Source of the DNA: Bacteroidota bacterium
GTDB lineage: Bacteria > Bacteroidota > Ignavibacteria > UBA10030
Assembly: GCA_035390885.1 (NCBI GenBank)
Contig: DAOOUW010000003.1
Coordinates: forward strand, 1,432-65,431
Direction: 5' to 3'
DNA: 64,000 nucleotides
Shown here: one piece after another, positions 11,260-63,118 of the stretch
How positions within the stretch are numbered: the stretch's first letter is position 1
How the letters are laid out: each line of letters opens with the position of its first letter
Position numbers and translations under genes: made by a program
The notes under the pieces: generated by a model
Database searches by the model: none
What the model was told of the DNA's origin: nothing
Seen by the model: the letters and a program-made list of their open reading frames with translations, nothing else

Positions 11260-11334
11260 GGAATATTCCTTTCAACTTGTGTTTGCCAAAAATATAGCTG
11301 AAGAATGAATGAAAAACAAAGATGTGTAATATTC

Positions 11335-15662: not shown

Positions 15663-15804
15663 ACTGAACCCTTTGTGATATTGTAAATTCAAAAGAGAAA
15701 AATCAATTCCAAGCCCAAAACAAATGACTTCTACTTTTATAATTTGTAAAAGATTATCCTCTTGTGCAAAGATTATTCTTCTTCAATATATACAATAATG
15801 ATAG

Positions 15805-15947
15805 CAGTAATGAAGATGAAGAGAAATAATAAAGTAGGAGAAAGGAAGTGTGATCAAAATGGTTGCTTCAATACAAGCTATCGCTCACCTCAGCCACCGT
15901 CAGAAATTGGTCGCTGAGGTGTTGTAAGGCATATCGAAGCAACCATC
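15805..15947 (-). repeat. Full copy of the intergenic palindromic repeat (core 15861-15943 plus AT-rich flank module)
   Basis: GGTTGCTTCAATACAAGCTATCGCTCACCTCAGCCACCGTCAGAAATTGGTCGCTGAGGTGTTGTAAGGCATATCGAAGCAACC folds as a long hairpin. The reverse complement of 15805-15860 aligns with the ATTTTGGTT..TTCTTTCGCCT..ATTATTT.ACTTCATCTTA flank of the copies at 44592 and 62827. Confidence 0.85.
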
Positions 15948-20016: not shown

Positions 20017-20081
20017 CGCTTGCTCGCTTTCCTGACTGAACTTAAAATATACAATGAGTTACTATGAAGCTATTGGCTACA

Positions 20082-21356
20082 TCACCGAATGGTAAAATGC
20101 CACAGCGTTCCCGGAATTGTATCGGTTGGCGTAATTTCATCAACTCGCCAATAGTACGTTGTATGAGGCTCGAGTTTCTCAGTATTAAAAACTGGAACAT
20201 CTTGCTCGTCAATAAAATTAAGCGCCGGTGGTTTGATGGAATATTTGGGAGCTTTACCTAAATATATCCGAAACGATTTTGCATTCCTCGATGGAAGCCA
20301 GCGAAGTTGTACCTGAGATTGCGAAAGATATACTCCATTACGAGGCGAGGGCATAGAAACAAAGGGAAGCGCCCGAGGCAATGAATTTTCTGGATCCCAT
20401 TGACCATCGAAAGTCCATTTTGCTGTTACGTCTTCTGGTTTTGGTGAACCTTCGGCAGCGCTAAGATTATCAGCAAACCAATCAAAATCTCCGCCAATTC
20501 TATGGCAATTGTAATAATAATGACGTGCGCCCCATTTCCATGGTCCGCTGGTCGTTGTCGGTGGATAGTAAATTGGAATGTCTGCCATTGTATTTGAAAA
20601 AATACAATCGAGCAAATAAATTTGCCCATCACGATGATTTCTGCCGAGAGGAAAGTTTGGCACTCCATCAAAGTATGAGTACCGTATCACAAACTTCTGC
20701 TTCTTGTTCGCACTTCCATCGTGCCAAATTGATGCGCTCAAGTTATGACCGTAAAACCGAGAATCGGTTATGTAGCACCATCCGCGTGGACAGACATAAT
20801 CGACCCATCCTTCAAAATAACAATTCGCATGATAATACATTCCATCTTTTCTATTCCAGAGGCTCACTGTATCTGCTCCATCCGCAATGACGTTACAATT
20901 GAGAAGAATGATTCGTGTACCATTTCCGTAAATTGCAAACTGATGATCGTGGATGCCGTGCAGCGCGCCATAATTATTGTAGATGGTTAAATTTGCAAAT
21001 GTAAGATCGTGGACAGAAGAATCAATATTCACTACAGCGCAGCCAAAATCATCATTTCCATGTTCTTTGCTCCATTCGCTTCGAAGCTGAGCAAATACTA
21101 TCCGGGTACTATCTCTATCTTCTCCAACAATGGCAATATTGCTCTTCTTTATCAGAAGCTTTTCGTTATATGTACCATTCTTTACAAGAATAACAATTAG
21201 ATTCTCATGCTGTTGAGGCGCTGCATCTAACGCTTGTTGAATCGAAGTATACTGACCGCTTCCATCTTTTGCTACAATGATATCCGCACGTTCATAGCCC
21301 ATTGCACAATTCATTAGCAATAAGCACATGAAAACCAACTTCCATAATGGTTTCAT
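20082..21356 (-). CDS. Pectin methylesterase (CE8-like, divergent) with C-terminal Ig/Fn3-like domain
   Basis: IIVAKDGSGQYTSIQQALDAAP is the classic CE8 N-terminal motif. QFAIYGNG, ADGADTVSLW and VDYVCPRGW sit where QAVAL, QDTL and DFIFG are expected. Signal peptide present. Confidence 0.7.
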   Translation of the reverse strand: MKPLWKLVFMCLLLMNCAMGYERADIIVAKDGSGQYTSIQQALDAAPQQHENLIVILVKNGTYNEKLLIKKSNIAIVGEDRDSTRIVFAQLRSEWSKEHGNDDFGCAVVNIDSSVHDLTFANLTIYNNYGALHGIHDHQFAIYGNGTRIILLNCNVIADGADTVSLWNRKDGMYYHANCYFEGWVDYVCPRGWCYITDSRFYGHNLSASIWHDGSANKKQKFVIRYSYFDGVPNFPLGRNHRDGQIYLLDCIFSNTMADIPIYYPPTTTSGPWKWGARHYYYNCHRIGGDFDWFADNLSAAEGSPKPEDVTAKWTFDGQWDPENSLPRALPFVSMPSPRNGVYLSQSQVQLRWLPSRNAKSFRIYLGKAPKYSIKPPALNFIDEQDVPVFNTEKLEPHTTYYWRVDEITPTDTIPGTLWHFTIR

Positions 21357-21428
21357 AACATTCTATAACCTTTCTCCACCCTAAACTTTAATACTATCGC
21401 ACTAAACCATGGCGCTTCATAAATTTTA

Positions 21429-23078
21429 TTATTTGATAATGATCGCTTCGTTCGTTGCTCCATTTGTAACTTCGAAAGCCTTCTTTGCGTTTTTTGCATC
21501 TTGTTGTGAAATACGAATATCTCTGGTTCCGGTTCCCTCTGCTCGGACATAAAGACTCGTTCCTTCCGGGAATGAAATCTTTTGAGCGTCAACTCCTTGT
21601 ACATTTCGCACCGTCAGAACAGGAGATTGTTTAAATCGAAGATCAATATTCGTGAATTGAATATTCTGTGCATCTTGCAAAATAATTGCACGATCGGCTA
21701 TGAGTGTAGCATTCGTTAGAGCGATGTGGTTCACTGGACGATCGACAAGTCCCTCCATTCGTACTCCGATTGATGCTCCATCGCAACGAATATTATTCAT
21801 CGTAATGTTACGGAACTCTGGCACTCTGGACTTATCGCTAACATCCACCGTAGTATCGCCGCCGTACGACATATCAAACAGTATTGCTTCTTTCGAAATA
21901 TCTTTCATCCATACTCCATCAATGACAATGTTTTCAACAAGTCCGCCTCGACCTCGCGCCGACTTGAAGCGTAATCCAACATCAGTCCAGATGCACGTAA
22001 GATTTCGAACATTGATGTTCCTTGCATTTCCATACGACTCGCTCCCTATGACAAATCCTCCGTGAGCATGGTACACGATGCAGTCTGCGATAATAATATT
22101 TTCACAGGCAGGTAAGTCTTTTGTTTTACGATTTGGCACACCAGGCTTTACACAAATTCCATCATCTCCTGCGTTTACTACGTTATTGTACACAAGTACA
22201 TTTCTGCACGATGATAAATCGATTCCATCGCCATTCTGCGCCCACCATTCATTATTGAGCGACATATTCCGAATAATAACATCCGAACATTGTGTAGGGT
22301 GGACTGTAAACTTTGGTGAATTAACAAACACCGGTCCATCGATAAGAATTGTTGAACAGTCATAGAACACAAGCAAGTCTGGTCTTACGTATTCTTTCGT
22401 AGCAACATAATCAGCTGAATCTAATTTTTTCTTTTGAGCTCGAAGATTCTCAAGATACTTAGGAGCATCGAGTGCAGCTTGCGATGGCATCCATAATGTT
22501 CCATCTTTACTTACTGCTCCTCCTGACTCCACAAGTTTTTTCCACTGATTGGGTGGCAGTTTCTCTTTTTTCACAGGATGCCAGTATTGTCCATTTCCAT
22601 TGAACACGCCTTTTCCTGTAATTGCAATATTATTCAATTGTTCACCGTAGATTAAGGACATTCGAGAGTACGATGAGCTTCCTGCTCTTCGAATAAAAGG
22701 CGTATCATCGATGTTCGGTGAGAATACCACAACAGCGCCTTGTTCCAGATGCAGATCGACATTGCTCTTCATCAATATTGGACCTGTCAGCCACAATCCC
22801 GGAGGAATGATGACTCTTCCACCGCCTTTTTTGGCAATGGCTTCGATAGCATTATTGATAGCCGCAGTGTTCATCGCAATTCCATCGCCGACTGCGCCAT
22901 AATCTGTAATTGACACTGTTACATTTGGAATTTGTGGTAACGGCGCTTTTGGCATATCAAAATTTAATTTTTCATAATAACGATCAGGAACTTGCTCATA
23001 CGGAATAAATCCCTGAGCATTGCAAAATAAAAATGGCGCTACTATTGCAATAAGTAGAGCTTTATTGAGTCTCTTCAT
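21429..23078 (-). CDS. GH28 polygalacturonase, secreted
   Basis: NGDGIDLSSC, AGDDGICVK, HGGFVIGSE and RFKSARGRGG are GH28 signature blocks. Signal peptide MKRLNKALLIAIVAPFLFCNAQG. Start placed at ATG 23078. Confidence 0.9.
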   Translation of the reverse strand: MKRLNKALLIAIVAPFLFCNAQGFIPYEQVPDRYYEKLNFDMPKAPLPQIPNVTVSITDYGAVGDGIAMNTAAINNAIEAIAKKGGGRVIIPPGLWLTGPILMKSNVDLHLEQGAVVVFSPNIDDTPFIRRAGSSSYSRMSLIYGEQLNNIAITGKGVFNGNGQYWHPVKKEKLPPNQWKKLVESGGAVSKDGTLWMPSQAALDAPKYLENLRAQKKKLDSADYVATKEYVRPDLLVFYDCSTILIDGPVFVNSPKFTVHPTQCSDVIIRNMSLNNEWWAQNGDGIDLSSCRNVLVYNNVVNAGDDGICVKPGVPNRKTKDLPACENIIIADCIVYHAHGGFVIGSESYGNARNINVRNLTCIWTDVGLRFKSARGRGGLVENIVIDGVWMKDISKEAILFDMSYGGDTTVDVSDKSRVPEFRNITMNNIRCDGASIGVRMEGLVDRPVNHIALTNATLIADRAIILQDAQNIQFTNIDLRFKQSPVLTVRNVQGVDAQKISFPEGTSLYVRAEGTGTRDIRISQQDAKNAKKAFEVTNGATNEAIIIK

Positions 23079-23170
23079 TTTATTTCCTTTCACCAATAAT
23101 GACAGATTACACACGCACTAACAAATCAAAATCGATAATATGCTCAATGCTTAAAAATGCAATTCGCCGC

Positions 23171-24697
23171 TTAATATATTTTTGGCGCTTCGCTTAACAA
23201 CCATCGAAACATGGCAACCCCAGCATCCCAGTTTTCATATCCCTCCGGCAATCGCCGATTGTCGAAATATTCATTATAGAGCCATGGATCGCCAACGGCA
23301 ACAACACATCCTTTTCCATATCGAGCGGTTGCCATCACTATAATACCATTTGCGGTCAATAATGGTTTTGCCGGCGGTTGTGTTTTCAACGATGAAACTT
23401 CTTTGATAAAAATATGATCGACACCCTTGAACGCAGGATGTTTCGGAAATTTTGTTATCCTTCCCATATCATAATTATCGTTCTTCACCATAAAGTTATT
23501 ATCTTCGTTGAAATGAATTCCGAACTCAGTTGCAAGTTTATTAAGATGCTCGAATTCACAATTCCCATTATCATTCGCTAACAAAACAAGCCTACCGCCT
23601 TGTTCCACCCATCGTTTAATAACTGCAATATCAGCGTCAGAAATTATATGTGGTTCTTTCGTCTCCTTCGGCGTATCTGGATCAACAATGATGTAAACAC
23701 TAAAATGCCTTAGCACAGAATCAGTTGGAGGAGATTGTAGCGTGTCGAGATCTGCGCCCAGCCAATCGATAACACGACCCAACTGGGAGAATCCACTATT
23801 CGTGGTGTCTTCCCAGATATAGTGATATCGCTCAAGTGAATCTTTTCCTTTTACTGGTCTCCATTCATTATTGAAGTAATAGTCTAAGCCAACTACTTTT
23901 CCAGCGCCAACAAACGGTGAAGCTGGAAGCTCGACGAGCTCCTTTGCTAATGGCAATTTAAGTTCTTTGATCCCATCTACTACAATTTGCGCCATTTGGA
24001 AAGCGCCAGTTCTTGTAAAATGCGTATGATCTTTCTTTTTATTCCAATTCCTGAATTGACCATCCTGAACGCCTGCAAGATATAACGGCCGAGATTTTAC
24101 TTCGCCTAATCCTCCAACGAGTTCCTTTGATTTTTCAAATACATCGATCAGAGGCGCGTTTTCTTCAGTGGCAACTTCTTTCATTGCAGCAGGATAATCA
24201 TAATGCGTTGCTATAAATTCTCCTTTTTCATTAAAATCATGTCGTATAACCGGCGTCAGCAAAATAGGAATGGCTTGTTTTTCACGAGACTCTCGAATAA
24301 ACTTTCTCAGGTTTTCTTTGTAATCTGGTCTCGCTGGCGCATACCGATTTGGGTCTTCCTTCTTTGCATCGTTATGCCCAAATTGAATAAAGACATAATC
24401 GCCAGGCTGCAACTGGTCGTAGATTACCTGCCATCTGCCTTCATCAATAAAACTTTTTGTACTCCTGCCATTGCGTGCATGGTTGTACACGGTAACGTTC
24501 TTAGAAAAAAACATCGGGAATATCTGTCCCCATCCATGCTCTGGATTATCAACTAATGGTTTGTCAGCCATCGTTGAATCGCCGATAAGGAATATACGGA
24601 TATGATTTTTTTGTGGAGCTTGAGCGACAAACGCACAAAGGAGTGAAATAAGCAGCACGCTGAGGATAATTGATTTTATATTCGGTATTCTATTCAT
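23171..24697 (-). CDS. SGNH/GDSL esterase (CE12 rhamnogalacturonan acetylesterase-like) fused to a ~250-aa C-terminal domain of unknown function
   Basis: IFLIGDSTMADK is the SGNH block I. Also GWGQ, QFGHND and DHTHFT. Start at ATG 24697, preceded by GGAGGAAATT. The C-terminal half (YYFNNEWRP... to the end) is a separate domain. Confidence 0.75.
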   Translation of the reverse strand: MNRIPNIKSIILSVLLISLLCAFVAQAPQKNHIRIFLIGDSTMADKPLVDNPEHGWGQIFPMFFSKNVTVYNHARNGRSTKSFIDEGRWQVIYDQLQPGDYVFIQFGHNDAKKEDPNRYAPARPDYKENLRKFIRESREKQAIPILLTPVIRHDFNEKGEFIATHYDYPAAMKEVATEENAPLIDVFEKSKELVGGLGEVKSRPLYLAGVQDGQFRNWNKKKDHTHFTRTGAFQMAQIVVDGIKELKLPLAKELVELPASPFVGAGKVVGLDYYFNNEWRPVKGKDSLERYHYIWEDTTNSGFSQLGRVIDWLGADLDTLQSPPTDSVLRHFSVYIIVDPDTPKETKEPHIISDADIAVIKRWVEQGGRLVLLANDNGNCEFEHLNKLATEFGIHFNEDNNFMVKNDNYDMGRITKFPKHPAFKGVDHIFIKEVSSLKTQPPAKPLLTANGIIVMATARYGKGCVVAVGDPWLYNEYFDNRRLPEGYENWDAGVAMFRWLLSEAPKIY

Positions 24698-24731
24698 AAT
24701 TTCCTCCAATCTACATTAGTTCTAATTACAC

Positions 24732-24757
24732 AAAACGCACCTCAAAGGGTGCGTTTT
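24732..24757 (-). terminator. Perfect 10-bp hairpin, bidirectional terminator candidate separating the transport genes from the CAZyme genes
   Basis: AAAACGCACC (24732-24741), loop TCAAAG, GGTGCGTTTT (24748-24757). The A and T runs are on either side, and it lies between the stop at 24785 and the start at 24697. Confidence 0.7.
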
Positions 24758-24784
24758 GAATGGAAATATAAATTGAATTTGAGG

Positions 24785-25441
24785 TTAGAAGGTTCCACGG
24801 AAACCTACTGTCAATGGAATATAGTAAAGCGTTCCGCCATCTGTGTTGGCGACATCAACGCCAACCTGAATAAACATTGCAGAGTTTTCACCGCCAATAA
24901 TATCAACGCCAACCGCTGCCGTTCCGCAGGCCACATTGCTATTTTTAAATGATGCAACATAGTTTGAGTTGGCATCTATAAGCACATAAATTTTATCGCT
25001 TGCGAGATTCATAATACCAGCGCTGGCGGTAACATAAGGATATACTTTTTCGATTGGTTCATACGGGAAACGATACCGAGCGCCAACATATGCAGCTACA
25101 GTGTTAAATTCAGCATCCTGAACATACGTGCCTGAAGGTAAATGCAATTGCTTTAATACCATACTTTTATTGATAGAAAATGAGCTATAGCTGACCTTCA
25201 AATGTCCTGTCAATTCAGGAAGAAATGCATACTCGAATCCTGCTGTAAGATTGAATCCATTGTTCCAACAATCATTGAATTTATAAAGCGTTGTCGTGTT
25301 AAAATATTTCGACATTGCATTATCGCTGAATGGTACCGATAACCCGCCTCCAAGCGTCAACGATACATTTTTAAACGTTGACTGAGAAAACGCGAAGGCA
25401 GGAAGAATTATTAACGATAGAAGAATAACTAATTTTCTCAT
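24785..25441 (-). CDS. Small outer-membrane beta-barrel protein (OmpW/porin-family-like)
   Basis: Signal peptide MRKLVILLSLIILPAFAFSQ, alternating hydrophobic beta-strand pattern, C-terminal ...VGFRGTF. Confidence 0.65.
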   Translation of the reverse strand: MRKLVILLSLIILPAFAFSQSTFKNVSLTLGGGLSVPFSDNAMSKYFNTTTLYKFNDCWNNGFNLTAGFEYAFLPELTGHLKVSYSSFSINKSMVLKQLHLPSGTYVQDAEFNTVAAYVGARYRFPYEPIEKVYPYVTASAGIMNLASDKIYVLIDANSNYVASFKNSNVACGTAAVGVDIIGGENSAMFIQVGVDVANTDGGTLYYIPLTVGFRGTF

Positions 25442-25501
25442 AGAATAACTTCCTTCTTAATTAATGAAGATCATTTCCCAAACAATTGATATTTATTGTA
25501 A

Positions 25502-27088
25502 TCATTCCCAAAAAGTTGGTATTATATACGATACACTTACTATCAAATTCTGAACAATTTTCTTATTGACGCTTGCTGAGTTAGACCATGTATCTGTATA
25601 TCGTCTATCAGAATATTCATACGCAACATTGAGTGTTGCACCAAAACCTGAAACACCTAAACCAATGGAGTAAACAGGGTATCGAACACTTTTTCCTCGC
25701 AAAGGATTAGTCGCCGGTTGAAATACATCCCCAATCTCACTAACGCCTGCGCGCAGAGACATCCATTTTACAGGTGCATACTCTGCACCAATCTTTATTA
25801 CCGAGTAAGAAAGCCATGGATTGGTATCGGAAACATCGTTATTATAGGTTGCCGACTCATAAGGAAGTATTTCGTATTCAAATCCAAGGACAATGTTTTT
25901 TCTTAAAGCAGCGGAAATACCAATGGAGCCACTAAATGGCAATTTCATCTTATCTTTCCCATGAATAGAGGTATTAGTTACCGCATGGGCTGAATCAATC
26001 TTGCCATTGTTATATGATGTAATTGTAGAATCTTTCCATAATGTATAAGAATAATCACGTGTAATTGTGGTAGGAGGTTTTAAGGTAAATCCAACAGTGA
26101 GAAATGGAGATTTATATGTGCTGCTAATGGTAAAATCGTACCCCGAATAGGTTGATTTTCCGACCTTTCTCCAACTTGTCATTCCGACCTTATCTAATCG
26201 AATAGAGCTGTAATAAAATAACGCTCTACCTCTACCCACACACACTTCCTCGTCATCTGTTTCTCCATCTAGATACATTCCACTTATTCCCACTGAAAAT
26301 TTTGGCGAAATCTCTATTGAAATTGCGCCGCCATATCCATAGATAGAGCCATTTCTATATTGAGAATATTGATACCATTGAACCGGCAATGGTCGTTTTG
26401 TTGGTGTTGCAGTAGAATCGGCTGTTGGCAATAAGCTCATTTGCCATTGGCTTATCCCATGCGCAACATCAAGAACGTTTGGAGAAAGCGTGTTATTATT
26501 TTGGTAAAACCAATTCAAGTTTGCATATTCGACAGCCCCAATTCCAACAACAATGTGATAATTGGCAAGTTTGAACGGCGCAGTAATAAATGCTTGCAAA
26601 GGAAGTGAAACATTCTTCGACCTATCCCAATTTGGCATTATAGTATCAAAAGGCCTTTGAATTGAATCTGCTTGAGTCGGTGTTTTCCCTTTTTGGATGA
26701 GAGAATCATAATAAGCGCTTGGTCGATCAGGAATTTTTGTCCGATCCAATAACGTTCCATCCAAAAGCAACATAAATTGTTCATGAGATTGCAATGTACC
26801 ATAATGCTTTTCTTGCTTTTGATCAATGTACTGTTGATAACCGCCCAGTGAAATTTGCAAACCCTTGACCGTAGTTAATAATGCCGGGCTTTGAAACATA
26901 ATCGATGGATCGTTTTGAATTCCAAACAAGATTCCACCAGCTCCACGTGACACTACTGACTGATTTGTCCTGTAATTCAAACCCTGCATTTGAAGAGCTG
27001 TTCCTTCTTGAGCCATTATATCTTCATTGCTTATAAGTATATTGGCCACAATAATTATCAGCGTAAAAATATAATTATTCCGTTTCAT
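25502..27088 (-). CDS. Outer-membrane beta-barrel protein, FadL/PorV-superfamily-like
   Basis: Signal peptide ending in ...IMAQEG and amphipathic beta pattern throughout. Its start overlaps the upstream stop (TAATG at 27086-27090). Confidence 0.55.
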   Translation of the reverse strand: MKRNNYIFTLIIIVANILISNEDIMAQEGTALQMQGLNYRTNQSVVSRGAGGILFGIQNDPSIMFQSPALLTTVKGLQISLGGYQQYIDQKQEKHYGTLQSHEQFMLLLDGTLLDRTKIPDRPSAYYDSLIQKGKTPTQADSIQRPFDTIMPNWDRSKNVSLPLQAFITAPFKLANYHIVVGIGAVEYANLNWFYQNNNTLSPNVLDVAHGISQWQMSLLPTADSTATPTKRPLPVQWYQYSQYRNGSIYGYGGAISIEISPKFSVGISGMYLDGETDDEEVCVGRGRALFYYSSIRLDKVGMTSWRKVGKSTYSGYDFTISSTYKSPFLTVGFTLKPPTTITRDYSYTLWKDSTITSYNNGKIDSAHAVTNTSIHGKDKMKLPFSGSIGISAALRKNIVLGFEYEILPYESATYNNDVSDTNPWLSYSVIKIGAEYAPVKWMSLRAGVSEIGDVFQPATNPLRGKSVRYPVYSIGLGVSGFGATLNVAYEYSDRRYTDTWSNSASVNKKIVQNLIVSVSYIIPTFWE

Positions 27089-28116
27089 TAGAATCCCACT
27101 CCTAAGCTAATTCGTTGGACATTCCCAAGGTGATACTTTAGACTTGCAAAGCTATAGTCAAACGCTAAGCGCATACCTCCAATATCTTGCTTCAAACCCA
27201 ATCCTGCAGTTAATCCTTCTGCATCATAATTGAATTTATACCCGCATCGTAACGCAACAAGCTTTGAAAATTCATATTCCAAACCTACATGTATTTGTTG
27301 ATCATAATCATTTGGATGTATGAGGTCGAATTCAACCCCCATTCTATTCTTCTCATTTTTTAACAACAACGCATCGGGTCCTATGAAGTTTGCGGCAATT
27401 CCTATACGGAAAATCATTGGCGTTGGGTGATTTTCTTTTGCATATTTAATATTTGGACCAAAATTCTGCACTGATGCTGCAAGTTCTATAGATCGAAACC
27501 CAGTTAAATAATGAATACCGTAATCAAATAACACATCTTCACCCCATGTTTTTACCTTAGCAGTATCAGAAGCATCACTTACAACTACAATTTCATCCTT
27601 ATCATAAAGCGATTCTCTTGCATACTTAACGCCAAGGCCAGTTGAAAACTTATCGGTAATCTTGGTAGCGTAACTGATGCCAACGACGTAACTATAGGGG
27701 CGGAACGTCCTCCCGGTTAATCCCGGTGTATTTAAGTCGTTTTTATATGGATCCCCCCATACTGCTTCCTCAATCTCACCATAATCAATATACTGCAACT
27801 GAATACCAAGTGAACCGAAACCTCGGAAGGAGCGTGATATCGACATCGCCCCTTGTTGGGTATCGAAAATCCATTGGAGATAGGTCATGGACAACTCTGT
27901 CCCTTGAGTATAAGCCACGCCAGCGGGGTTCCAAAAGATTGCTTCTGCACCTCTTCCCAAGACAGTATATGCATCACCCATTGCATTTGCTCTAGCGACA
28001 GGCATAACTTTAAAAAACTGCATTGATGTACTGCCAACCTTCTGTGCCATCATACAAGTAGAGGTAATAATGGTGAGGGCAATAAGTGCGATAAATAATT
28101 GTGATCTCTTCTTCAT
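27088..28116 (-). CDS. PorV/PorQ-family-like outer-membrane protein
   Basis: The mature N-terminus GSTSMQFFKVMPVARANAMGDAYTV..GAEAIFWNPAG resembles PorV/PorQ (T9SS shuttle) family openings. The C-terminus ...ISLGVGF is typical of OM barrels. Confidence 0.6.
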   Translation of the reverse strand: MKKRSQLFIALIALTIITSTCMMAQKVGSTSMQFFKVMPVARANAMGDAYTVLGRGAEAIFWNPAGVAYTQGTELSMTYLQWIFDTQQGAMSISRSFRGFGSLGIQLQYIDYGEIEEAVWGDPYKNDLNTPGLTGRTFRPYSYVVGISYATKITDKFSTGLGVKYARESLYDKDEIVVVSDASDTAKVKTWGEDVLFDYGIHYLTGFRSIELAASVQNFGPNIKYAKENHPTPMIFRIGIAANFIGPDALLLKNEKNRMGVEFDLIHPNDYDQQIHVGLEYEFSKLVALRCGYKFNYDAEGLTAGLGLKQDIGGMRLAFDYSFASLKYHLGNVQRISLGVGF

Positions 28117-28134
28117 TGCTTTTTCATCCTTCCA

Positions 28135-30468
28135 TCAATGAATAATGACAAACTTACCATGTGCACGATCGCCTGTGTCTAGATCTTCAACAACAAAGAA
28201 ATAGACGCCAGATGCTATACGCTGGTTGTTGCGGGAAATCTGGAACCACTCCGTTGAATAAGTATCCGATCGATGCTCTATCGTTCCAACTAATTGTCCA
28301 CTGTATGAAAATATTCGAATGTTACTTCTCGAAGGCAGTCCATAAAAACATATCTTGTCGTGAATATCTCCCATCTTTGTTGAGCCGCCAAAATTCGATG
28401 CAACAATCAAGGGGTTGGGGGCAACATATACTTTACCCAATTTTGAGACCGCGCCTTTTTGTGTTTCATGATATGTAATATTTGTCCACCCGCTTTTTGT
28501 ACCTAATGAGTCGACTGTAAGTACTGCATAGTAATAATTTTCACTTATCAGGCTTGAGGTATCTCGTACTACATAACATCCCGGATAATTAACGTCAATA
28601 TTATAATATTGTGGAGCACGACGTGTGATACTATCAATAACTTTCCATGGACCGAGTGCATCAGGAGACTTAAGAACTAAGTAATGACTAAACCCTGAAC
28701 GTATTCTCCCTTGTACCGCTGTAGAGCTTTCAAAGTCCTCTACTGCTGTTGACCACACAATAATATTTTTAAAATCTGCCTGATTATGAACTTCAATTAT
28801 AGGACTCGGAAGTGGAATATAAGGAATTTGGTATACACCTTTTGCCGGTGATATTTCTGCTTTGTATTGTTCTGTATCATATTTTTTATATGGCTGACCA
28901 GTATAAATCTGAATAGCACGATCAGCAACCTGACGTAACGAAATTACAGGTTCTGGATCATCTGTTGAAATCTGTCCTGCCACATACCAGGGTAGTGGAT
29001 ATTTTTTTAAATAAGCGCTTCCCATATAGGGATAGTTTGCATGAATGCCGGGGTAAGTTATTGAATCGTACCAACTCACAACTGGCTTGTACCAACCTGT
29101 TGACTGCCCGCTTGGCTCTGTAGAAGCTCCACCTGCATCACGGAGCACAGTATCTGCAGCTGTTCCAGGTCCATAGCCAACCAATTGAGCAATAGCAAAC
29201 CGTACTGGTACTCCTGGCTTAAATACGTATGGGCCAAATGATGTATAATGGAGAGTAGTTTGTGAATAATTACCATTACTCAACGCACGAGGTTTTGCTC
29301 GCCCATGCCAATACTTCATAAGTTCTAGATTTTTTGCGGCATCGATTGATGCATAAGGATAATTAAAATTTGCCCAACTAGTAGAATCAGCTGAACCAGC
29401 CTTCATATCGAAGGCTGAGTATGGACGACTCAACGACAAATCTAACATAGCTCCAATTTGAGTGTCGTAAAGCGCCCGGTTTCTATTTGGAATTTGTTGC
29501 GTAACATAAGGCTGACGGAATTTACCAAGTTCGTCCCAAACTCGAGTACTATCGGTTCCGCTATATAACGTTCTCCATTGTGGTTGAAGTTGCGTCGTAT
29601 CATAATGCAAAACCATATATCCAACAGCTTGAGGCGCGTTTAATCCTCCACGATTTCCTTCTGTAGACCACACATTAAAATACTTTTCTTCCGGGAAACC
29701 ATTTCTTGTATGGACATAAGATAAATACCGTGTAAAATTATAGCGTGCATAAATTTCTTTTGAACGAGTGGTATTTGAACCCTCTTGCCATAATCCACCG
29801 TATTTTCTTTCCATCCCAAACGCTGAAGGTGCAATTGCTGCCCCAAAGACAACAAAACCATCAGGATATTCAATAGTATCTATATTCACAATTTCATATT
29901 CAATAATGACAAACGCATCATAACCACGATACCCCCATGCACGACTTGTCTGTTTTACTTCTAGCTTCATTGGTTCAATTGTTTGGTATTTTGCAATAAT
30001 AATCTCTTCAGCTTCATTTGGGTCATAGTTAGGATTTAATGTCCCATCTTCAAGAATTGGATAATTCTCTTTACGTGAAATTCCAATGGCTTTAACATAT
30101 ACATCTTCAATCTGGATAGTTCCACCACTTCCATCTCCCATAATACCACATGCTCGGCGCACTTTTTGTCCATCAATTGTTGCACTTAAAAGAACACCAG
30201 CGCCAAACGAATTATGATGTCCCAGATATTCAAAGTTATCCAAAAAGATATTGCCTTCTGAAGGGGGCCATTCCCACGAAGATGTCTTCTTCGTAATACC
30301 TACCTCTTGTGCATTGCTCGCATTGAATGGCCTGCCTATTTCACCGGTATAATACATAGTTTGGCGTAGTAGGCTTCTTACGTGAGTTTTATATCGTAAG
30401 CTCTGTTGTGCAAAAGCTGACATCGCACAAATACTCAATAAAATCATTACTATGTTAATTCTTTTCAT
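28135..30468 (-). CDS. 777-aa secreted protein of unknown function with T9SS-type C-terminal domain
   Basis: Signal peptide MKRINIVMILLSICAMSAFAQQ with no lipobox Cys. No catalytic motif recognised. The C-terminal ~90 aa (KVYVAPNPL...IRIFSYSGQLV...ASGVYFFVVEDLDTGDRAHGKFVIIH) look like a Por_Secre_tail/FlgD-Ig CTD. Confidence 0.6.
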   Translation of the reverse strand: MKRINIVMILLSICAMSAFAQQSLRYKTHVRSLLRQTMYYTGEIGRPFNASNAQEVGITKKTSSWEWPPSEGNIFLDNFEYLGHHNSFGAGVLLSATIDGQKVRRACGIMGDGSGGTIQIEDVYVKAIGISRKENYPILEDGTLNPNYDPNEAEEIIIAKYQTIEPMKLEVKQTSRAWGYRGYDAFVIIEYEIVNIDTIEYPDGFVVFGAAIAPSAFGMERKYGGLWQEGSNTTRSKEIYARYNFTRYLSYVHTRNGFPEEKYFNVWSTEGNRGGLNAPQAVGYMVLHYDTTQLQPQWRTLYSGTDSTRVWDELGKFRQPYVTQQIPNRNRALYDTQIGAMLDLSLSRPYSAFDMKAGSADSTSWANFNYPYASIDAAKNLELMKYWHGRAKPRALSNGNYSQTTLHYTSFGPYVFKPGVPVRFAIAQLVGYGPGTAADTVLRDAGGASTEPSGQSTGWYKPVVSWYDSITYPGIHANYPYMGSAYLKKYPLPWYVAGQISTDDPEPVISLRQVADRAIQIYTGQPYKKYDTEQYKAEISPAKGVYQIPYIPLPSPIIEVHNQADFKNIIVWSTAVEDFESSTAVQGRIRSGFSHYLVLKSPDALGPWKVIDSITRRAPQYYNIDVNYPGCYVVRDTSSLISENYYYAVLTVDSLGTKSGWTNITYHETQKGAVSKLGKVYVAPNPLIVASNFGGSTKMGDIHDKICFYGLPSRSNIRIFSYSGQLVGTIEHRSDTYSTEWFQISRNNQRIASGVYFFVVEDLDTGDRAHGKFVIIH

Positions 30469-30502
30469 ATCCTTATCCTACATAAATTATTTTATAGAAC
30501 TG

Positions 30503-33409
30503 TTAAAAATCTATTGCTATACCCAGATTGTATGAGCGTGGTGAATTACTATATAATAGAAATGAATGATCGACCGGATATGTTACATCCGACTCACCTG
30601 GATAATTATCCCAATAGAGTGCACCACGAGTTATGTTCTCAAGCGGATACGATTCAAAGTTGGGCAATATTTGATTACCATCAACCTTGTTTTCACTATA
30701 GAAAATATAATTATAGTTATAAATCTTATTATCAAACAAATTAAACACTTCAAAGTAAAGAGTAGCTTTTGTTCCAAAGAATTTTGTAATTGTTTTTGAA
30801 ATGCGCATATCGGTATTGTATTCAGCAGGACTTCTATACTCATTAACAGCACCAAGATCTTTGGAAGAGGTGTAGGGACGACCGCTGCGTGCAAAACTCC
30901 TTACTGAAAATGCTGTCGATCCAAATGGATAAATACTCCCAAACTTCGGTCCCCAATTATCATCCGTCGCATACGTGAGTGTAGCAATTAAATTGTGTGT
31001 TCGATCGAAGTTTAACAATACGTCACGAACAGGAACCTTTTGTAAATCTGTGGAACTTGTACCATCGTCATACCGAGTAACCACCCAAGGCGCATTTGTT
31101 GGTGATGCACTTTTTCCCGTAGCAACGCTATATTGATAATTTAACGATCCCGTTAAAGCTCCGCGCTTTTTACTTAGCACAACCCTGAAACCGCGAATAT
31201 CTGCATAGGCGCGATTAAAATAAGATTGAAATGAGACATTTGATTGCATCTGATCAACGATAGTGGCAACTTCAATTAAGTTCTTTACGTCTTTGTACCA
31301 GCCACTAACATCCACTGTAAATCCTTCACCCAGTCCCTGTATAATGCCGACGTCGTAACTATTGGTTGACTGCGGTTTCAGTGTTGAATTACCGATCATA
31401 TAAGGAAATTCTCCTTCTCTCGTTACCTGCACCCTGTTGCCAATCATATACTGAAACGGAGGTCTCTGAAGAAATACACCATAGTTCAAATGGAATACTG
31501 TTGAAACTGAAACAGGGAAGGATATACCAATACGTGGTTGTAATCTTCCAATAGGATTAGCTTTCGTTTTCGGCGCATTGTCAGGATCTTGTATTCCTCT
31601 CCCTGTCTCTTCATCAATTACCACAAAGTATGGATTGAAGAAGTTTTCGTAGTAATAGTTATTAGAATTCCATACATCCCAACGCAACCCAACTTTTGCA
31701 ATCATACCTTCAAATTCCATCTTATCTTGTAAATAAATTCCGGCTTCCCAAGGTTCGCCAGTATATTTTGTTTTTGATATACCGCCCATGGACTGAATGT
31801 TATAGACATTATCAACGCGCAAAAAATAGTAATTTGCTTGTATACCGCCATTAAGCATGTGTGAATTTGTGACCTGGCTAGTAAATGAAGCATCAAGCGA
31901 TATGGTTGCAGTTCTTTCATTAGAGAAGTTGCCCTGTGTATTTCCCAAGTAGGAAAACGTCTTATTTGTAAAACCATCAAAAGAGAATAATGAACCCGTA
32001 CGGAAAATTACACCGCTTCCAGTTTGAACATTTATTGCGTCGGGAATAATTGTATCATACCATGGAGTTGTACCAAGACGGTACTCTGTACGAAGTCCAT
32101 TAAGTTTAATATCATAAAATGTTTTAGCGCTAAGCGCTTTCGTATAGCGTAAACCAAACTGGTGGTTCATACGTTGACGGTATTGAATGCCAAGAATCCG
32201 ATCCCACATCCAGCCATAGAAACCTGTACCTCCAGAGAAATAATTCTCAAATTCATACTGATAGCCGCCGCTGACTTTGAACGCCGCACCTTGACCTAAA
32301 TCGAATGCAACATTTCCCATGACTTGCCTTTGCTCGTCAGGTTGTTGAGTTGGAAGTATAGGATTTTCTATATTCGACCTGAAAGCCATAAACATTGTAA
32401 CTCCCTCGTCAATCGGTCCTCCTGTAGCGCCTTCAACTGCATAATCAATCCGTTTTGTATAATCAGCATCTCCTTCACGAGCTACAATCTGATCCCAAAC
32501 GGCTTTACCTACCCTAGCTGTAAGCATAGTATCATTTGCGAAAAGCGAATTCACCCATTTAAAAAGTGCTTTCCCATCGTTCTTTTTCCCAAGCCAAAAT
32601 TCTTCATCTGCAAGGAGCATCATATATGGTTGCGCTTTAACATCAAAAATATTTGCTCCCCAATGTTTTTTACCCGGCAACCGCATTCGCGATTCAAAGT
32701 GTGAACGCCATTTATCTGACTTACCTTCTTTCATTGTAATGTTTACCACGCCCGATTGAGCATTCCCATATTGTGCGTCGAAGCCGCTTGTGATAACTTC
32801 AATTTCTTCAACCGCGCTAACAATTGGCAAAAATGCACTAGAGTTATCTAGAGGGTTATTAATGCCCATTCCTTGCAAAGTGTATAACTCTTCGTTTGTA
32901 CGCCCACCTCGAAAGTGCCCGTCTGTAACATCGGCGGCAAGTCCAATAACATCACCAACATCTCGTACACCTGCAAGAGATTGTACATCCTCCGGTCGTA
33001 CGATTGCACTCGTCGATGTTTTTTCTGGCTCGACGTCAGGACGCGTCGCTTCTACAACGATTGCTTCTTGCTCGATTGCTGTCTGTTTAAGATCAAAATT
33101 CAGCGTCGTCGTACGTCCTGAATTTACAATAACATCCTGCACAATGACTCGCTCGTATCCAATCATCGAAGCTTGTACTTCATATTTTCCAGCAGGAATA
33201 TTCAAGATAAAATAATTTCCATCAAGGTCAGAAGCTGCGCCAAGGCTCGTTCCACGAATTACAACATTCGCTCCAATGAGCGGCTCGCCAGTTTGAGCAT
33301 CCTTCACAACACCTGATATTTTCCCTCCGGTTTGTGCAGAGAGAATACTCAGCGTGCAACACAGAGCCACGCTAAGTATGAGCATTCTGTATATTACTCG
33401 TTTTGCCAT
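30503..33409 (-). CDS. TonB-dependent outer-membrane receptor with CarboxypepD_reg N-terminal domain
   Basis: GKISGVVKDAQTGEPLIGANVVIRGTSLGAASDLDGNYFILNIPAGKYEV is the carboxypeptidase-regulatory-like domain. A plug region follows (IVRPEDVQSLAG...RGGRTNEELYTLQGMGINNP). The barrel ends ...LGIAIDF. Confidence 0.88.
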   Translation of the reverse strand: MAKRVIYRMLILSVALCCTLSILSAQTGGKISGVVKDAQTGEPLIGANVVIRGTSLGAASDLDGNYFILNIPAGKYEVQASMIGYERVIVQDVIVNSGRTTTLNFDLKQTAIEQEAIVVEATRPDVEPEKTSTSAIVRPEDVQSLAGVRDVGDVIGLAADVTDGHFRGGRTNEELYTLQGMGINNPLDNSSAFLPIVSAVEEIEVITSGFDAQYGNAQSGVVNITMKEGKSDKWRSHFESRMRLPGKKHWGANIFDVKAQPYMMLLADEEFWLGKKNDGKALFKWVNSLFANDTMLTARVGKAVWDQIVAREGDADYTKRIDYAVEGATGGPIDEGVTMFMAFRSNIENPILPTQQPDEQRQVMGNVAFDLGQGAAFKVSGGYQYEFENYFSGGTGFYGWMWDRILGIQYRQRMNHQFGLRYTKALSAKTFYDIKLNGLRTEYRLGTTPWYDTIIPDAINVQTGSGVIFRTGSLFSFDGFTNKTFSYLGNTQGNFSNERTATISLDASFTSQVTNSHMLNGGIQANYYFLRVDNVYNIQSMGGISKTKYTGEPWEAGIYLQDKMEFEGMIAKVGLRWDVWNSNNYYYENFFNPYFVVIDEETGRGIQDPDNAPKTKANPIGRLQPRIGISFPVSVSTVFHLNYGVFLQRPPFQYMIGNRVQVTREGEFPYMIGNSTLKPQSTNSYDVGIIQGLGEGFTVDVSGWYKDVKNLIEVATIVDQMQSNVSFQSYFNRAYADIRGFRVVLSKKRGALTGSLNYQYSVATGKSASPTNAPWVVTRYDDGTSSTDLQKVPVRDVLLNFDRTHNLIATLTYATDDNWGPKFGSIYPFGSTAFSVRSFARSGRPYTSSKDLGAVNEYRSPAEYNTDMRISKTITKFFGTKATLYFEVFNLFDNKIYNYNYIFYSENKVDGNQILPNFESYPLENITRGALYWDNYPGESDVTYPVDHSFLLYSNSPRSYNLGIAIDF

Positions 33410-33459
33410 TTGTACTCCTTAGTTCCTTAATGACAAGTTAATAATGACTTACACCACAG

Positions 33460-34815
33460 TTATTTTTTTGTATTCACAACAACGTTGATCAAATCAAAAT
33501 TTTTGACATTCTCAATGACATTTGGCTCGGCAACATTATCGAATTTACAATTCTCGATGTGAACATTCGTCGCAGGGGAATACCCAAACGCCCGTATCCA
33601 AATTCCATAATGGCTTTTCTCACAAACTACATCTCGAACATCAACATTCCTGACAATCGGCGTAAAAGAACCTTTATCAGCCTCTTCATAGTAAAAATCA
33701 ATTTTAATAACAGCTTCAGCAACTTGACCAACTTTGATATTTCTCATAAACACATTTTCAACAACGCCGCCGCGCATCGCATTCGTCTTAATTCTTAACG
33801 CACGATCGAGACTTGGACTGTCCATCACATTGTTTTCAATGAAGACGTTTCTCACACCGCCAGATATTTCACTTCCGATGGAAACACCTCCATGCCCATC
33901 GTTCATCGTACTATTCTCAACAATTATATTTTCGCAAGGGACATTGATTCTGCGCCCGTCGGCATTTCTGCCAGATTTGATCGCAATGCAATCATCGCCA
34001 TTCTTAAAGTAACAACCTCTGATAAGAACATCTTTACATGATTCGGGATCGATTCCATCATTGTTTGGACCCAAGCCAACCGTTTTTACATCAATAAAAG
34101 AGACATTAGTGCATAGCACCGGATTCAGAAACCACATTGGGGAATCCTTAAAAGTAACTCCTTCAACCAGAATATTCTTACATCGATATGGCTCAAAGAA
34201 ATTTGGTCGTAAATATGAGCCTTCGCCGCACACTCTTTTTTCTACTGGAACTCCTTGCTCAGCCATTTCAAAAAGTTTTTTCCGAGCATCTCGCTGACTT
34301 TGCAAATTTTTCCACTGCCACCAATTTGCATCGGAGGCTTGTCCATTCAAAACACCTTCGCCAGTAATTGCAATATTTTCCTGCTCCATTGCATAGATCA
34401 AGGGGGAATAATTCATACATTCCACACCTTCCCAGCGGCAAAATACTATAGGTAAATATTTCTTCGGATCTGTAAAAAACAGAATCTCCGCATCTTTCAT
34501 AATATGGAGATTGACATTGCTCTTGAGTACAATCGGACCTGTAAGATACTTGCCTGCAGGAACAATTACTCTACCACCGCCAGCTTTCGAACATGCTTCG
34601 ATCGCTTTTGCAAATGCTTTTGAGCAATCCTTTTTGCCATTGCCAACGGCGCCGTATTTCGTTACATCAAAATCTTTTGATGGAAAAGTTGGAGGAATGA
34701 TTTGTTTGAGGATAGTTTCTTTTGTTGACCAGTTAATATCTTGAGCTACAACAATACTACCAATAGTAACCACAGCAAAAATCATAATGGTTACTCTATT
34801 TATTTTTTTTATCAT
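33460..34815 (-). CDS. GH28 (exo-)polygalacturonase, secreted
   Basis: NNDGIDPESC, NGDDCIAIKSG, HGGVSIGSE and RIKTNAMRGG. N-terminal signal/anchor. Confidence 0.9.
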   Translation of the reverse strand: MIKKINRVTIMIFAVVTIGSIVVAQDINWSTKETILKQIIPPTFPSKDFDVTKYGAVGNGKKDCSKAFAKAIEACSKAGGGRVIVPAGKYLTGPIVLKSNVNLHIMKDAEILFFTDPKKYLPIVFCRWEGVECMNYSPLIYAMEQENIAITGEGVLNGQASDANWWQWKNLQSQRDARKKLFEMAEQGVPVEKRVCGEGSYLRPNFFEPYRCKNILVEGVTFKDSPMWFLNPVLCTNVSFIDVKTVGLGPNNDGIDPESCKDVLIRGCYFKNGDDCIAIKSGRNADGRRINVPCENIIVENSTMNDGHGGVSIGSEISGGVRNVFIENNVMDSPSLDRALRIKTNAMRGGVVENVFMRNIKVGQVAEAVIKIDFYYEEADKGSFTPIVRNVDVRDVVCEKSHYGIWIRAFGYSPATNVHIENCKFDNVAEPNVIENVKNFDLINVVVNTKK

Positions 34816-35075
34816 GAAGTCCTCACTCTACTTTTGATTTTACAAATATTGTGAGAGAATAATGGCGCTAACTTTTTTGAATTTTTATCTACACGCTAAT
34901 CGGCTAAAATATAAACTTCATTTAACTTCTTGTCAAGTTGTTTTAAGAACTTTTTATTTTTTCAAATTGAAGTTAGCAAGTATAACAATAAAACGGAAGC
35001 TAAATGAGACGAGATGCAGGAATACACTATTAAACGCATTGTCATTACGCTCAGTGGCAAAAAATTAAAGGTCCA

Positions 35076-43116: not shown

Positions 43117-43364
43117 CCAAAAATTACGCATTAGAAATTTGCAAAGATGGTTGCTTCAATTATGCTTTACGGCACATCAGCAACCAATTTCTGGACGGTG
43201 GCTGAGTAGAACAGCAGTCCGTATCGAAGCCACCGCGAAACATTCTGCAACTCACAGGTTCACCCGTGGATGAAAAACAAAGTTGCCTGTTGCCTCGATA
43301 CGCTCTTCGAGCTACTCGGCGACCAAATTCTCGACGGTGGGTAACAGTACTTATCGAAGGCAGC
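43117..43364 (+). repeat. Tandem double copy of the intergenic repeat (left-flank module, core 1 at 43149-43234, linker module, core 2 at 43282-43364)
   Basis: CCAAAAATTACGCATTAGAAATTTGCAAAGA is followed by GGTTGCTTCAAT...GACGGTGGCTGAGTAGA...CGTATCGAAGCCACC. Then comes CTGCAACTCACAGGTTCACCCGTGGATGAAAAACAAAG, then GTTGCCTCGATACGCTCTTCGAGCTACTCGGCGACC...CTTATCGAAGGCAGC. Confidence 0.85.
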
Positions 43365-44393: not shown

Positions 44394-44480
44394 ATTCCAC
44401 TTTTATAAAAATAAGCTTCAACACGTAAATTATTTATGAATGTAATAAATAGGTACAGAGAATACAACTACATTTGTTCA

Positions 44481-44640
44481 AACCAGATTATGCATTAGAA
44501 ACTTGCAAAGATTATTGCCTCGATAAACCATAAACCTTACAGTATCTCAGCAACCGATTCCCTGACGGTGGCTGAGGTTCTCGGAGCCACCATTTTGGTT
44601 CTCCCTTCTTTCGCCTGTTTTATTATTTTACTTCACCTTA
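44481..44640 (+). repeat. Intergenic repeat copy (left flank, core with internal deletion, right AT-rich flank)
   Basis: AACCAGATTATGCATTAGAAACTTGCAAAGA, then TTGCCTCGATAA...CTCAGCAACCGATTCCCTGACGGTGGCTGAGGTTCTCGGAGCCACC, then ATTTTGGTTCTCCCTTCTTTCGCCTGTTTTATTATTTTACTTCACCTTA. Confidence 0.85.
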
Positions 44641-44801
44641 AACTTTACCGCTACCTTTATTGCATAAGCTGCGTTCAACAGGTTCTTGCCATTGCAGATG
44701 TTCAGATGAGAAAATATTGCAGCAGAATATCCAAGAAAGCCTATTGTTATTTATCAAACGAGCATCCGATAGATACGATTTCAATGCCGAGTTTTCTATT
44801 G

Positions 44802-48718: not shown

Positions 48719-48745
48719 TAAAGGTACGATGATGGATCCTCTTTC

Positions 48746-48811
48746 AACCCAAATTATGCATTAGAAATTCACAAAGACTGTTGCCTCATCACGCCTTACA
48801 GCGCCTCAGCC
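48746..48811 (+). repeat. Truncated intergenic repeat copy (left flank plus first part of core)
   Basis: AACCCAAATTATGCATTAGAAATTCACAAAGA, then CTGTTGCCTCATCACGCCTTACAGCGCCTCAGCC. It lies between convergent gene ends. Confidence 0.7.
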
Positions 48812-56430: not shown

Positions 56431-56547
56431 TAGTGGCTTCGATATGAGCTATCGCTCACCTCAGCCGTCGTCGGGATTTCGGTTGCCGAGTAGCCGTAAG
56501 GCGTATCGAGGCAACACTCTGCAAGTTTCAAAAACTTAATTTTGGGT
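56431..56547 (-). repeat. Intergenic repeat copy (core 56433-56515 plus reverse-complement left-flank module)
   Basis: GTGGCTTCGATATGAGCTATCGCTCACCTCAGCCGTCGTCGGGATTTCGGTTGCCGAGTAGCCGTAAGGCGTATCGAGGCAAC, then ACTCTGCAAGTTTCAAAAACTTAATTTTGGGT. It lies between convergent gene ends. Confidence 0.85.
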
Positions 56548-56621
56548 AGAAGCTTTCGCTTCCCCTATTTCTTCTCTTCTACTTGTCAAAGATACCCGGA
56601 AAATTTGTTGGATTGTACGCT

Positions 56622-62388: not shown

Positions 62389-62724
62389 ATTCAAATTTCG
62401 TTTCCTTTAGCTCTAATTATGCAGTTAGAAACAAGAAAAAATATTTCTAACAAGAGATGCAATTTATCAAGGTGTTTGTTCTTTTCTCTTGAAAGAAAAC
62501 GAACAAAAGGTTACCCAAAATGTGCACAGGAAAAATTTACATCAATTGAATTATCATTAGTTCATAGTTTGAGTTTAAGATTCAAAAAAATATGGATAAA
62601 ACATTGGCTCACTTCGTTGCACAAAATTAACTTGTCTCGCTGAAAGCGCGAGCCTCAAACAGAATTTTGTGCGGATGCTTCGTTCGCCTTGTTTTACATA
62701 CCATATTTTTCTTAGGTCGGTTTT

Positions 62725-62876
62725 CCCAAAAATGGAGAGCCGTTGCCTCGATACGCTCTCCGAGCTACTCGGCAACCGATTCTCTGACGGTGGCTGAGTA
62801 GAGCGATAGCTCGTATCGAAGCCACCATTTTGGTTATTTTTTCTTTCGCCTATTTCATTATTTTACTTCATCTTAT
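62725..62876 (+). repeat. Best-preserved full copy of the intergenic repeat (core 62742-62826 plus right AT-rich flank)
   Basis: GTTGCCTCGATACGCTCTCCGAGCTACTCGGCAACCGATTCTCTGACGGTGGCTGAGTAGAGCGATAGCTCGTATCGAAGCCACC, then ATTTTGGTTATTTTTTCTTTCGCCTATTTCATTATTTTACTTCATCTTA. Confidence 0.88.
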
Positions 62877-63118
62877 ACCTCTACTGTTAACGTTATAGCA
62901 TAATCCGGGTACAAGACTTCTGCATATTCCAACATTTTTATCCCTCTTGTAGAAGTTACAAAGAACTTCGCCATGGAGACGGAAATCCCTGTTGTATCAA
63001 ATTCCATAATTCATTGAAATTACAAGAGTTAGCGCTTTTACTATTATCGCTTAGACTATGATTTTTTTGGCACGTTGAATGAATCAATCTCTTATAGAAA
63101 GAGTGAAAGGGAACGACA

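Follow-up and report, generated by a model that had tools for sequence, protein, structure and literature searches.

A probable lineage-specific, modular MITE family with a double-hairpin core in an uncultured bacterium of the Ignavibacteriales / FCB group

Introduction

The definition of a MITE and the criteria for recognizing one are used in this study as given in PMC3049150, and the family described here shows all of these features except a parent IS, none of which was found in approximately 250 kb, and overall AT-richness. Bacterial MITEs, such as Correia/NEMIS of Neisseria, RUP of S. pneumoniae and Nezha of cyanobacteria, are non-coding elements of less than 200-500 nt that carry TIRs, are bounded by a target-site duplication (TSD) and can fold. 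They occur as many dispersed intergenic copies that are present or absent between relatives, and they are presumed to be mobilized in trans by an IS with matching ends. Our repeats are alike in these respects; however, no sequence kinship was found to Rfam, viral contigs, or plasmid or phage records, the duplication is 5 bp long at TTNAA-like sites whereas that of the known MITEs is TA, the center is G+C-rich and modular, and the whole element is not AT-rich (41.7% GC vs. 41.4% for the surrounding DNA).

Among the BOX elements, those of S. suis include extra module types. In Streptococcus, BOX elements are organized as boxA-boxB(n)-boxC, in which the end modules carry TIRs, the number of central tandem modules varies among strains, and the central module folds largely alone (PMC3049150). 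Our family may be likened to BOX by analogy of architecture only, in that both appear to combine fixed TIR-bearing end modules with a variable tandem center. The phylum and the sequence are different, however, and the repeated unit is an 84-nt double hairpin plus a linker (54 nt or approximately 220-500 nt), not a 45-nt boxB.

RAYT-linked REPs, GTAG- and CGTC-tagged, are known from E. coli and Pseudomonas, and Y1 transposition neither needs TIRs nor produces a target duplication. REPs are arranged as inverted palindrome pairs and motif clusters with heterodimeric subtypes, and they lie between convergent or unidirectional genes (PMC3733652, PMC6006769). The likeness of our repeats to REP, REPIN and BIME sequences consists of short inverted imperfect palindromes, a conserved spacer, clustered extra motifs, heterodimeric variants and an extragenic location. 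However, our repeats differ in their TIRs and 5-bp duplication, in a RAYT-like gene that is unflanked by repeats, in a GT[AG]G foot that occurs in only approximately half of the units, and in structured "loops" of approximately 24 nt. Two defining features of REPs, a repeat-flanked RAYT gene and insertion without duplication, were tested for and are both missing.

The IS1380 family (ISEcp1, IS1247) resembles our repeat in its 5-bp direct repeats, which have been described for IS1247 (PMC3281130), and its ends, which read CCTA(A/G)ATT vs. CC(C/T)A(A/G)ATT here; however, the copies of our repeat neither contain nor adjoin a transposase gene.

Materials and Methods

The window is the whole stretch of DNA that was analyzed (64,000 nt). 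Labels L124-L151 denote the metagenome contigs that were compared with it. Nine claimed copies of the repeat were examined by repeat search and MAFFT alignment, a core profile for nhmmer was built from 29 copies, and profiles were made for five flank modules. Gene contexts were counted from a simple ORF map. Transposases were sought locally, with sequences of IS200, IS608 and E. coli RayT as queries.

Results

Copies in the window

The repeat family is real: direct and inverted copies were recovered where the original prediction had placed them, and the nine aligned copies have in common a core of approximately 85 nt and flanking modules. Two degenerate signatures gave five and four matches in the window, against 0.00 expected in shuffles. 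The nhmmer search with the 29-copy profile yielded a total of seven solid cores of approximately 84 nt and one truncated copy.

62742-62826, plus strand: core, the copy under study (E 4e-27)
56433-56515, minus strand: core (E 4e-25)
15861-15943, minus strand: core (E 1e-20)
43150-43234, plus strand: core (E 4e-20)
43289-43362, plus strand: core with a degenerate R unit (E 8e-15)
44515-44590, plus strand: core (E 2e-12; given below as 44514-44591 within the intact element)
11376-11441, minus strand: core, partly deleted (E 3e-11)
48743-48810, plus strand: truncated copy between convergent genes, consisting of the left module La (48743-48779, E 1e-5) and only the L hairpin unit (48780-48810)
1212-1280, minus strand: claimed degenerate copy, without statistical support (E 2.9)

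At least eight copies or fragments had been predicted, and this count stands for the seven solid cores and the truncated copy; the copy proposed at 1210-1250 has to be withdrawn as not significant. By itself, the segment 48780-48810 is marginal with the core profile (E 0.32). Because it directly adjoins a significant left module, it is a real truncated copy, as had been proposed for 48778-48811. Profile searches also confirmed left modules at 43118, 44477, 48743 and, reverse-complemented, 56517, and right modules at 44592, 62827 and, reverse-complemented, 15787-15860. As for the two isolated left-module look-alikes, the one at 4622-4647 was not detected by the profiles, and the one at 62414-62440 is, as judged by eye, a plausible degenerate end-repeat.

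Every copy in the window is intergenic, and none lies between divergent genes. The window ORFs include no transposase, in agreement with the original prediction, and no tRNA genes were found in the window. The layout of the individual copies and arrays, as obtained from nhmmer, alignment and folding, is as follows.

62742-62826, plus strand: core, with L unit 62742-62777, spacer GATTCTCTGAC and R unit 62789-62826
62827-62909, plus strand: right module Ra (Ra HMM E 2e-15), ending in the right TIR TAGCATAATCCGGG (62896-62909)
62455-62741, plus strand: long module of approximately 290 nt upstream of the core, a non-coding dispersed repeat
62398-62915, plus strand: whole composite, comprising a degenerate left end-repeat near 62417-62436, the long module, the core and Ra
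44482-44673, plus strand: intact single-core MITE of 192 nt, with La 44482-44513, core 44514-44591, Ra 44592-44673 and TIRs ACCAGATTATGCA / TGCATAAGCTGCG
43118-43362, plus strand: array of La 43118-43147, core 43150-43234, linker 43236-43288 and core 43289-43362
56433-56549, minus strand: core 56433-56515 and La 56517-56549, between convergent genes
15787-15943, minus strand: core 15861-15943 and Ra 15787-15860, with a degenerate left module
11329-11441, minus strand: partial core 11376-11441 and a linker fragment, 11329-11361, with hairpin CCCACGGGTTTACCCGTGAG

The linker of the array is 54 nt long and contains the hairpin CACAGGTTCACCCGTGG, and the two cores are spaced 139 nt apart. An Ra-like stretch at approximately 56540-56590, seen by eye, follows the copy at 56433-56549 on the plus strand.

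Module order and family size

The modules have a fixed order and orientation: La, a linker or the long module stands before the core, and Ra, a linker or Rb stands after it; Rb is then followed by the long module and another core. In 245 kb of non-redundant sequence from the same population we counted 44 cores, 15 La, 11 linkers, 10 Ra, 9 Rb and 8 long modules, and no module occurred without a core. The copy density in unselected sequence is eight in approximately 71 kb, which comprises the window and the 7.2 kb past its left end (L151); this extension harbors no copies and no transposases. For the protein at the right edge of the window, a look-up gave no record.

The short linker between tandem cores measures 54-58 nt and has a conserved hairpin, CCCACGGGTTCACCCGTGGG (window 43236-43288 and 11329-11361; L131, L134 and L143). 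Arrays often terminate in cores that are cut at model position 55-60 and followed by a conserved piece, GGGTGTTTTGCARRAG (L125 and L134). The long module, of approximately 300 nt, is 81-87% identical across the window and four contigs, and each of its loci is followed by a core.

Window 62455-62741: long module
L125 5565-5880: long module
L127 approximately 9630-9860: long module
L133 7434-7740: long module
L137 1660-1952: long module

It contains a long hairpin, GCACAAAAT...ATTTTGTGC, whose inner hairpin varies by indels, and a terminator-like hairpin with a T-run (GCGGAYGCTTCGTTCGC CTYGTTTTAC; 62671-62687 in the window copy). A small ORF (MGKTSAH...) in the long module was considered and rejected, as it has a stop at codon 13 in the window copy and a frameshift in L137. 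Possible identities of the long module are a small RNA gene and a further mobile module. Some cores are followed by Rb, in which short G+C hairpins (CCCCGTCAACCTTCGGTTGACACCCC, CCCCTTCTGAGAAGGGG and CCCCTCTTGTAGAGGGG) stand in a row; this module is apparently a repeat in its own right, rich in hairpins, through which cores are joined to the long module.

L124 53-130: Rb
L133 approximately 7840-7920: Rb
L137 1516-1590: Rb
L143 approximately 3610-3687: Rb
L142 approximately 11340-11413: Rb

The GC content is 30-37% in the end modules and 49-58% in the core. The mobile unit is non-coding and has no conserved ORF.

Termini, target-site duplication and empty sites

The mobile unit La-core-Ra measures approximately 192 nt (about 190-200 nt) and is bounded by TIRs of 13-17 nt, CCCARATTATGCA ... 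TGCATAATCTGGG. In the four intact copies the left end reads CCCARATTATGCA(WTA) and the right end is its complement, and the TIRs pair in a DNA fold. The inverted outer ends AACCCAAAT / ATTTTGGTT that had been proposed earlier are not the functional termini; the true TIRs lie approximately 190 nt apart, one where the left module begins and the other at the outer end of the right module. Identical 5-bp direct repeats lie just outside the TIRs in all four intact copies.

44477-44481 (window): left TSD copy, TTCAA, 5-bp direct repeat
44674-44678 (window): right TSD copy, TTCAA, 5-bp direct repeat
L128: TSD TTAAA
L136: TSD TTTAA
L140: TSD TTTAA

Because these 5-mers are direct and not inverted, they lie outside the TIR proper, and such TTNAA-like 5-mers are the signature of a target-site duplication. 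Both ends are intact in only these four copies; many of the others are arrays or truncated copies without a recognizable duplication.

A precise insertion is seen at 44482-44673. The ROK kinase gene beside it has a homologue with 95% amino acid identity in a related species, on contig L145, in which positions 403-473 and 474-560 are contiguous and match window positions 44742-44672 and 44474-44388, which are approximately 197 nt apart. The extra segment in the window is exactly La-core-Ra, 192 nt, with TTCAA on each side. When 44482-44673 and one TTCAA are removed, the window aligns without gaps to L145 (83/99 identical), in which TTCAA is present as a single copy. The unit inserts at intergenic TTNAA-like sites and duplicates 5 bp. 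The array 43118-43362 also differs between the two genomes, as the window has two cores and L145 has La and one core, and the difference is one 139-nt core+linker unit.

The composite 62398-62915 is absent from the orthologous site of a relative with 91% amino acid identity (L147/L148), in which approximately 190 nt of unrelated sequence without a core are found instead. No matching 5-mers occur at the ends of this composite, and the site in the relative consists of unrelated DNA and is not a clean empty site. The approximately 190 nt (L147 3240-3430 / L148 1242-1432) start with a left-module-like sequence, ATCCAAATTATCAAGTTAG, and this intergenic site may attract insertions repeatedly or contain a different, decayed element. 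These comparisons answer a question raised by the original prediction: the unit is present or absent at orthologous sites of close relatives, and arrays vary by whole core+linker units.

Structure of the core

The core consists of two inverted hairpin units of approximately 37 nt, L and R, with an 11-nt spacer between them. The L unit reads GTTGCC-TCGATACG-tip hairpin-CTACTC-GGCAACC and the R unit GGTGGCT-GAGTAG-tip hairpin-CGTATCGA-AGCCACC. Because R is approximately the reverse complement of L, single copies can adopt a two-hairpin fold or form a single long hairpin, and pair counts decide between these folds. The local hairpins show compensatory changes (covariation of 0.162 vs. 0.121±0.008 in shuffled alignments; 0/500 shuffles as high), for example CG 22 / TA 4 at pair 6-37 and AT/GC swapped to GC/AT in four copies at pairs 71-81 and 72-80, and these changes may represent few independent events. 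The long single hairpin or cloverleaf was rejected, as the long-range covariation was 0.106 vs. 0.104 and 200/500 shuffles were as high; the two variable central pairs assort randomly (TA 8, TT 6, AA 6, AT 5).

In approximately half of the copies the R unit carries GAGTAG at the foot of its tip hairpin, the others carrying GAGGTG, and the L unit has the complements (alignment columns 32-33 and 68-69). The unit variants TAC/ACC on the left and GTA/GGT on the right assort independently. G-U and A-C departures in the stems are equally common on both strands, and thus nothing indicates selection of one strand as RNA.

Host and distribution

The window DNA is present at 99.95-100% identity in several metagenome assemblies. 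The flanking proteins have T9SS sorting domains, and their closest named homologues come from Ignavibacteriales / Bacteroidota MAGs; the host is an uncultured Ignavibacteriales / FCB-group bacterium of digester and activated-sludge metagenomes. A strict 31-nt signature matched 22 metagenome contigs, all outside the window, and overlapping pairs of these were 98.7-100% identical. Cores thus also occur outside the window, and all are intergenic. One relative with 95% amino acid identity has a degenerate copy, and relatives with 72% and 54% identity have no copy in 10-11 kb. The predicted lineage specificity is supported by the restriction of the strict signature to 22 contigs and by these relatives.

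Several other sources were considered and discarded. A loose signature, CTCAGCCRYCGTCN{6,10}GGTYGC, gave at least 118 single chance matches in a genome collection, mostly in high-GC genomes, among which nhmmer found no real copy. A phage or plasmid origin found no support, with no matches in viral contigs and no blastn match of the composite in plasmid or phage records. Integron attC sites were rejected by inspection, because the ends are unlike RYYYAAC/GTTRRRY and both orientations occur beside housekeeping genes.

Discussion

A modular MITE family as the preferred explanation

As a whole, the data are best explained by a lineage-specific, non-coding, modular MITE family, to which we assign a probability of approximately 0.75. 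Among the possibilities named in the original prediction, that of a MITE is borne out by the TIRs, the 5-bp target-site duplications in all four intact copies and the empty site in a related genome. According to this explanation, the AT-rich end modules La and Ra carry the TIRs around a G+C-rich 84-nt double-hairpin core, and a DDE transposase encoded elsewhere in the genome would act on the unit in trans. After insertion, the core and linker modules may be tandemly amplified by slippage or unequal recombination, which would yield BOX-like A-Bn-C or BIME-like arrays. Copies would persist mainly at gene 3′ ends because insertion there is presumably least harmful, and a terminator or insulator effect of the hairpins, if any, would be a by-product and not the reason for the family.

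TIRs in combination with a target-site duplication point to a DDE-type transposase, since Y1 enzymes make no target duplication. The mobilizer may belong to the IS1380 family. An enzyme of this family would be the leading candidate because the family makes 5-bp duplications and its ends begin with CCTA(A/G)ATT. A plasmid record gives the ends of ISEcp1 as CCTAGATTCTACGT and CCTAAATTCCACGT, and those of the MITE are CCTAAATTATACAT and CCCAAATTATGCAT; the first eight bases are common to both, and the likeness is limited to 8-11 of the 14 terminal bases. On this sequence likeness, the assignment to the IS1380 family may serve as a lead only. Approximately 250 kb of the organism contained no IS1380-type transposase and no autonomous element with matching ends.

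A compact IS200 at L137 10700-11200 (TnpA 147 aa, Pfam Y1_Tnp E 6e-31, hairpins CCCTGAGGCTTGCCACAGGG and CCCTGCGGCTTGCCGCAGGG), which appears to be inserted within a larger ORF, was considered as a related element and rejected: it belongs to the ordinary IS200 type, has flanking hairpins of its own and shows no relationship to the core.

Mobilization by a RAYT

We consider it unlikely that the core is a REP doublet (REPIN- or BIME-like) that is spread by a RAYT (Y1 HUH) acting on single-stranded DNA hairpins, with La and Ra as adjacent mosaic motifs comparable to the A, B, L and S motifs of E. coli BIMEs. The form of the core agrees with such an origin, as it pairs two inverted imperfect palindromes of approximately 37 nt across a conserved spacer, its local stems covary, and its complementary unit variants assort independently, as members of a single pool would. 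The foot of the tip hairpin is ambiguous in this respect, since GAGTAG is found in approximately half of the units and the other half has GGTG instead of GT[AG]G. Conserved array linkers and the bias toward sites between convergent or unidirectional genes are likewise features of REPs (PMC3733652).

A RAYT gene elsewhere in the genome had been suggested as a test, and one RAYT-like gene was indeed found on a contig that carries cores (L132 131-706, plus strand, 191 aa; NCBIfam REP_Tyr_transpos E 1e-19). It has the RAYT-like motifs NHLH, WQ and YIKYNP; however, its score of 70.8 bits is below the curated cut-off of 80. It is a single-copy gene with nearest homologues that are at most 72% identical, and its neighbors belong to a type I restriction locus, with the 3′ end of an hsdS-like ORF on one side and a 1084-aa hsdR-like ORF on the other. 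No cores flank it, and the nearest core fragment on the same contig is 3.5 kb away. Moreover, the intact elements have TIRs and a target duplication, of which a Y1 enzyme needs the one as little as it makes the other, and the inserted unit at 44482-44673 is La-core-Ra and not the core alone. The REP/BIME option of the original prediction thus holds for the resemblance, which extends to inverted hairpin pairs, conserved linkers and the 3′-end bias, and does not hold for the mechanism, given the TIRs, the TSD and the unflanked RAYT-like gene.

We regard as quite unlikely a hybrid in which the lone RAYT-like Y1 enzyme recognizes a REPIN-like core inside a DDE-moved, TIR-bounded MITE, and also the alternative of a core domesticated to act at convergent gene ends as a terminator for both directions or as an insulator. 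Features that point toward the hybrid are tip hairpins with a GTAG foot, loops of the two units that are complementary to each other, and unit variants that reassort freely. If the hybrid were true, two unrelated mobilization systems would operate on one repeat family.

Host function and gene context

The predicted position of every copy after a stop codon is true, and it is likewise true of most intergenic regions; the real positional bias is enrichment at convergent gene ends. Copies were found in 10/22 convergent, 16/133 tandem and 1/21 divergent intergenic regions. This distribution would be expected if the repeats were host-selected signals, that is, bidirectional terminators, stabilizers of mRNA 3′ ends or a multi-copy small RNA, and if their spread reflected selection. 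The stable hairpins of some copies (z -4.5 to -7.9), the U-rich Ra after the R hairpin and the compensatory changes in the stems are in keeping with a host function as well. We nevertheless judge this explanation very unlikely. The orientation relative to genes is unbiased (in tandem contexts, 7 copies along the gene orientation and 12 opposite), and a consensus terminator scan was at background (19 vs. 17.0±4.5 expected) and did not pick out the cores; a sigma-70 promoter scan was also at background level. In Rfam, no curated family matched the 64 kb at the gathering score, and relaxation to E values of up to 10 produced only chance-level matches. Copies are absent or variable at orthologous loci of close relatives, and the TIRs and TSD account for the spread without a function. 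The suggestion that the repeats are structured RNAs of 3′-UTRs is not supported, given the lack of orientation bias, the absence at orthologous loci, the equal frequency of G-U and A-C departures and the lack of an Rfam match.

Arrays that grow and shrink by tandem duplication could also be explained without any mobility, by local duplication of segments or by gene conversion from an ancestral intergenic sequence. This explanation is extremely improbable, as the copies are scattered over many contigs, at 25 or more unrelated intergenic sites whose flanks are likewise unrelated, and it is largely refuted by the empty site and the exact insertion that duplicated 5 bp.

Significance of the family

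The repeat is a new lineage-specific family of a well-known type of selfish intergenic DNA, and the general understanding of such elements is unchanged. The modular MITE interpretation would give the Ignavibacteriota / FCB group, where small mobile repeats have barely been described, a family whose modules follow a grammar and for which TIRs, an empty site and duplications of 5 bp are well documented. The repeats explain contig breaks and variation at intergenic sites in the population, and they are usable as strain markers in digester metagenomes. Furthermore, the A-Bn-C design, with its double-hairpin center and interchangeable linkers, offers a useful comparison for the evolution of BOX and BIME elements.

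Neighboring features

The minus strand of the window at 18388-35000 encodes a pectin-degradation cluster with two GH28 proteins, a pectinesterase, a pectate lyase, Pel9A-like beta-helix proteins with T9SS sorting tails, and PorV-like and CarboxypepD_reg proteins. The direct repeats D2/D13/D15 (22.2-22.9 kb vs. 34.0-34.6 kb) are the two GH28 paralogues and not mobile repeats. On L124, at approximately 2900-3300, a candidate RNase P RNA signature (GGAGGAAAGTCCGAAC...) was seen by eye in the sequence.
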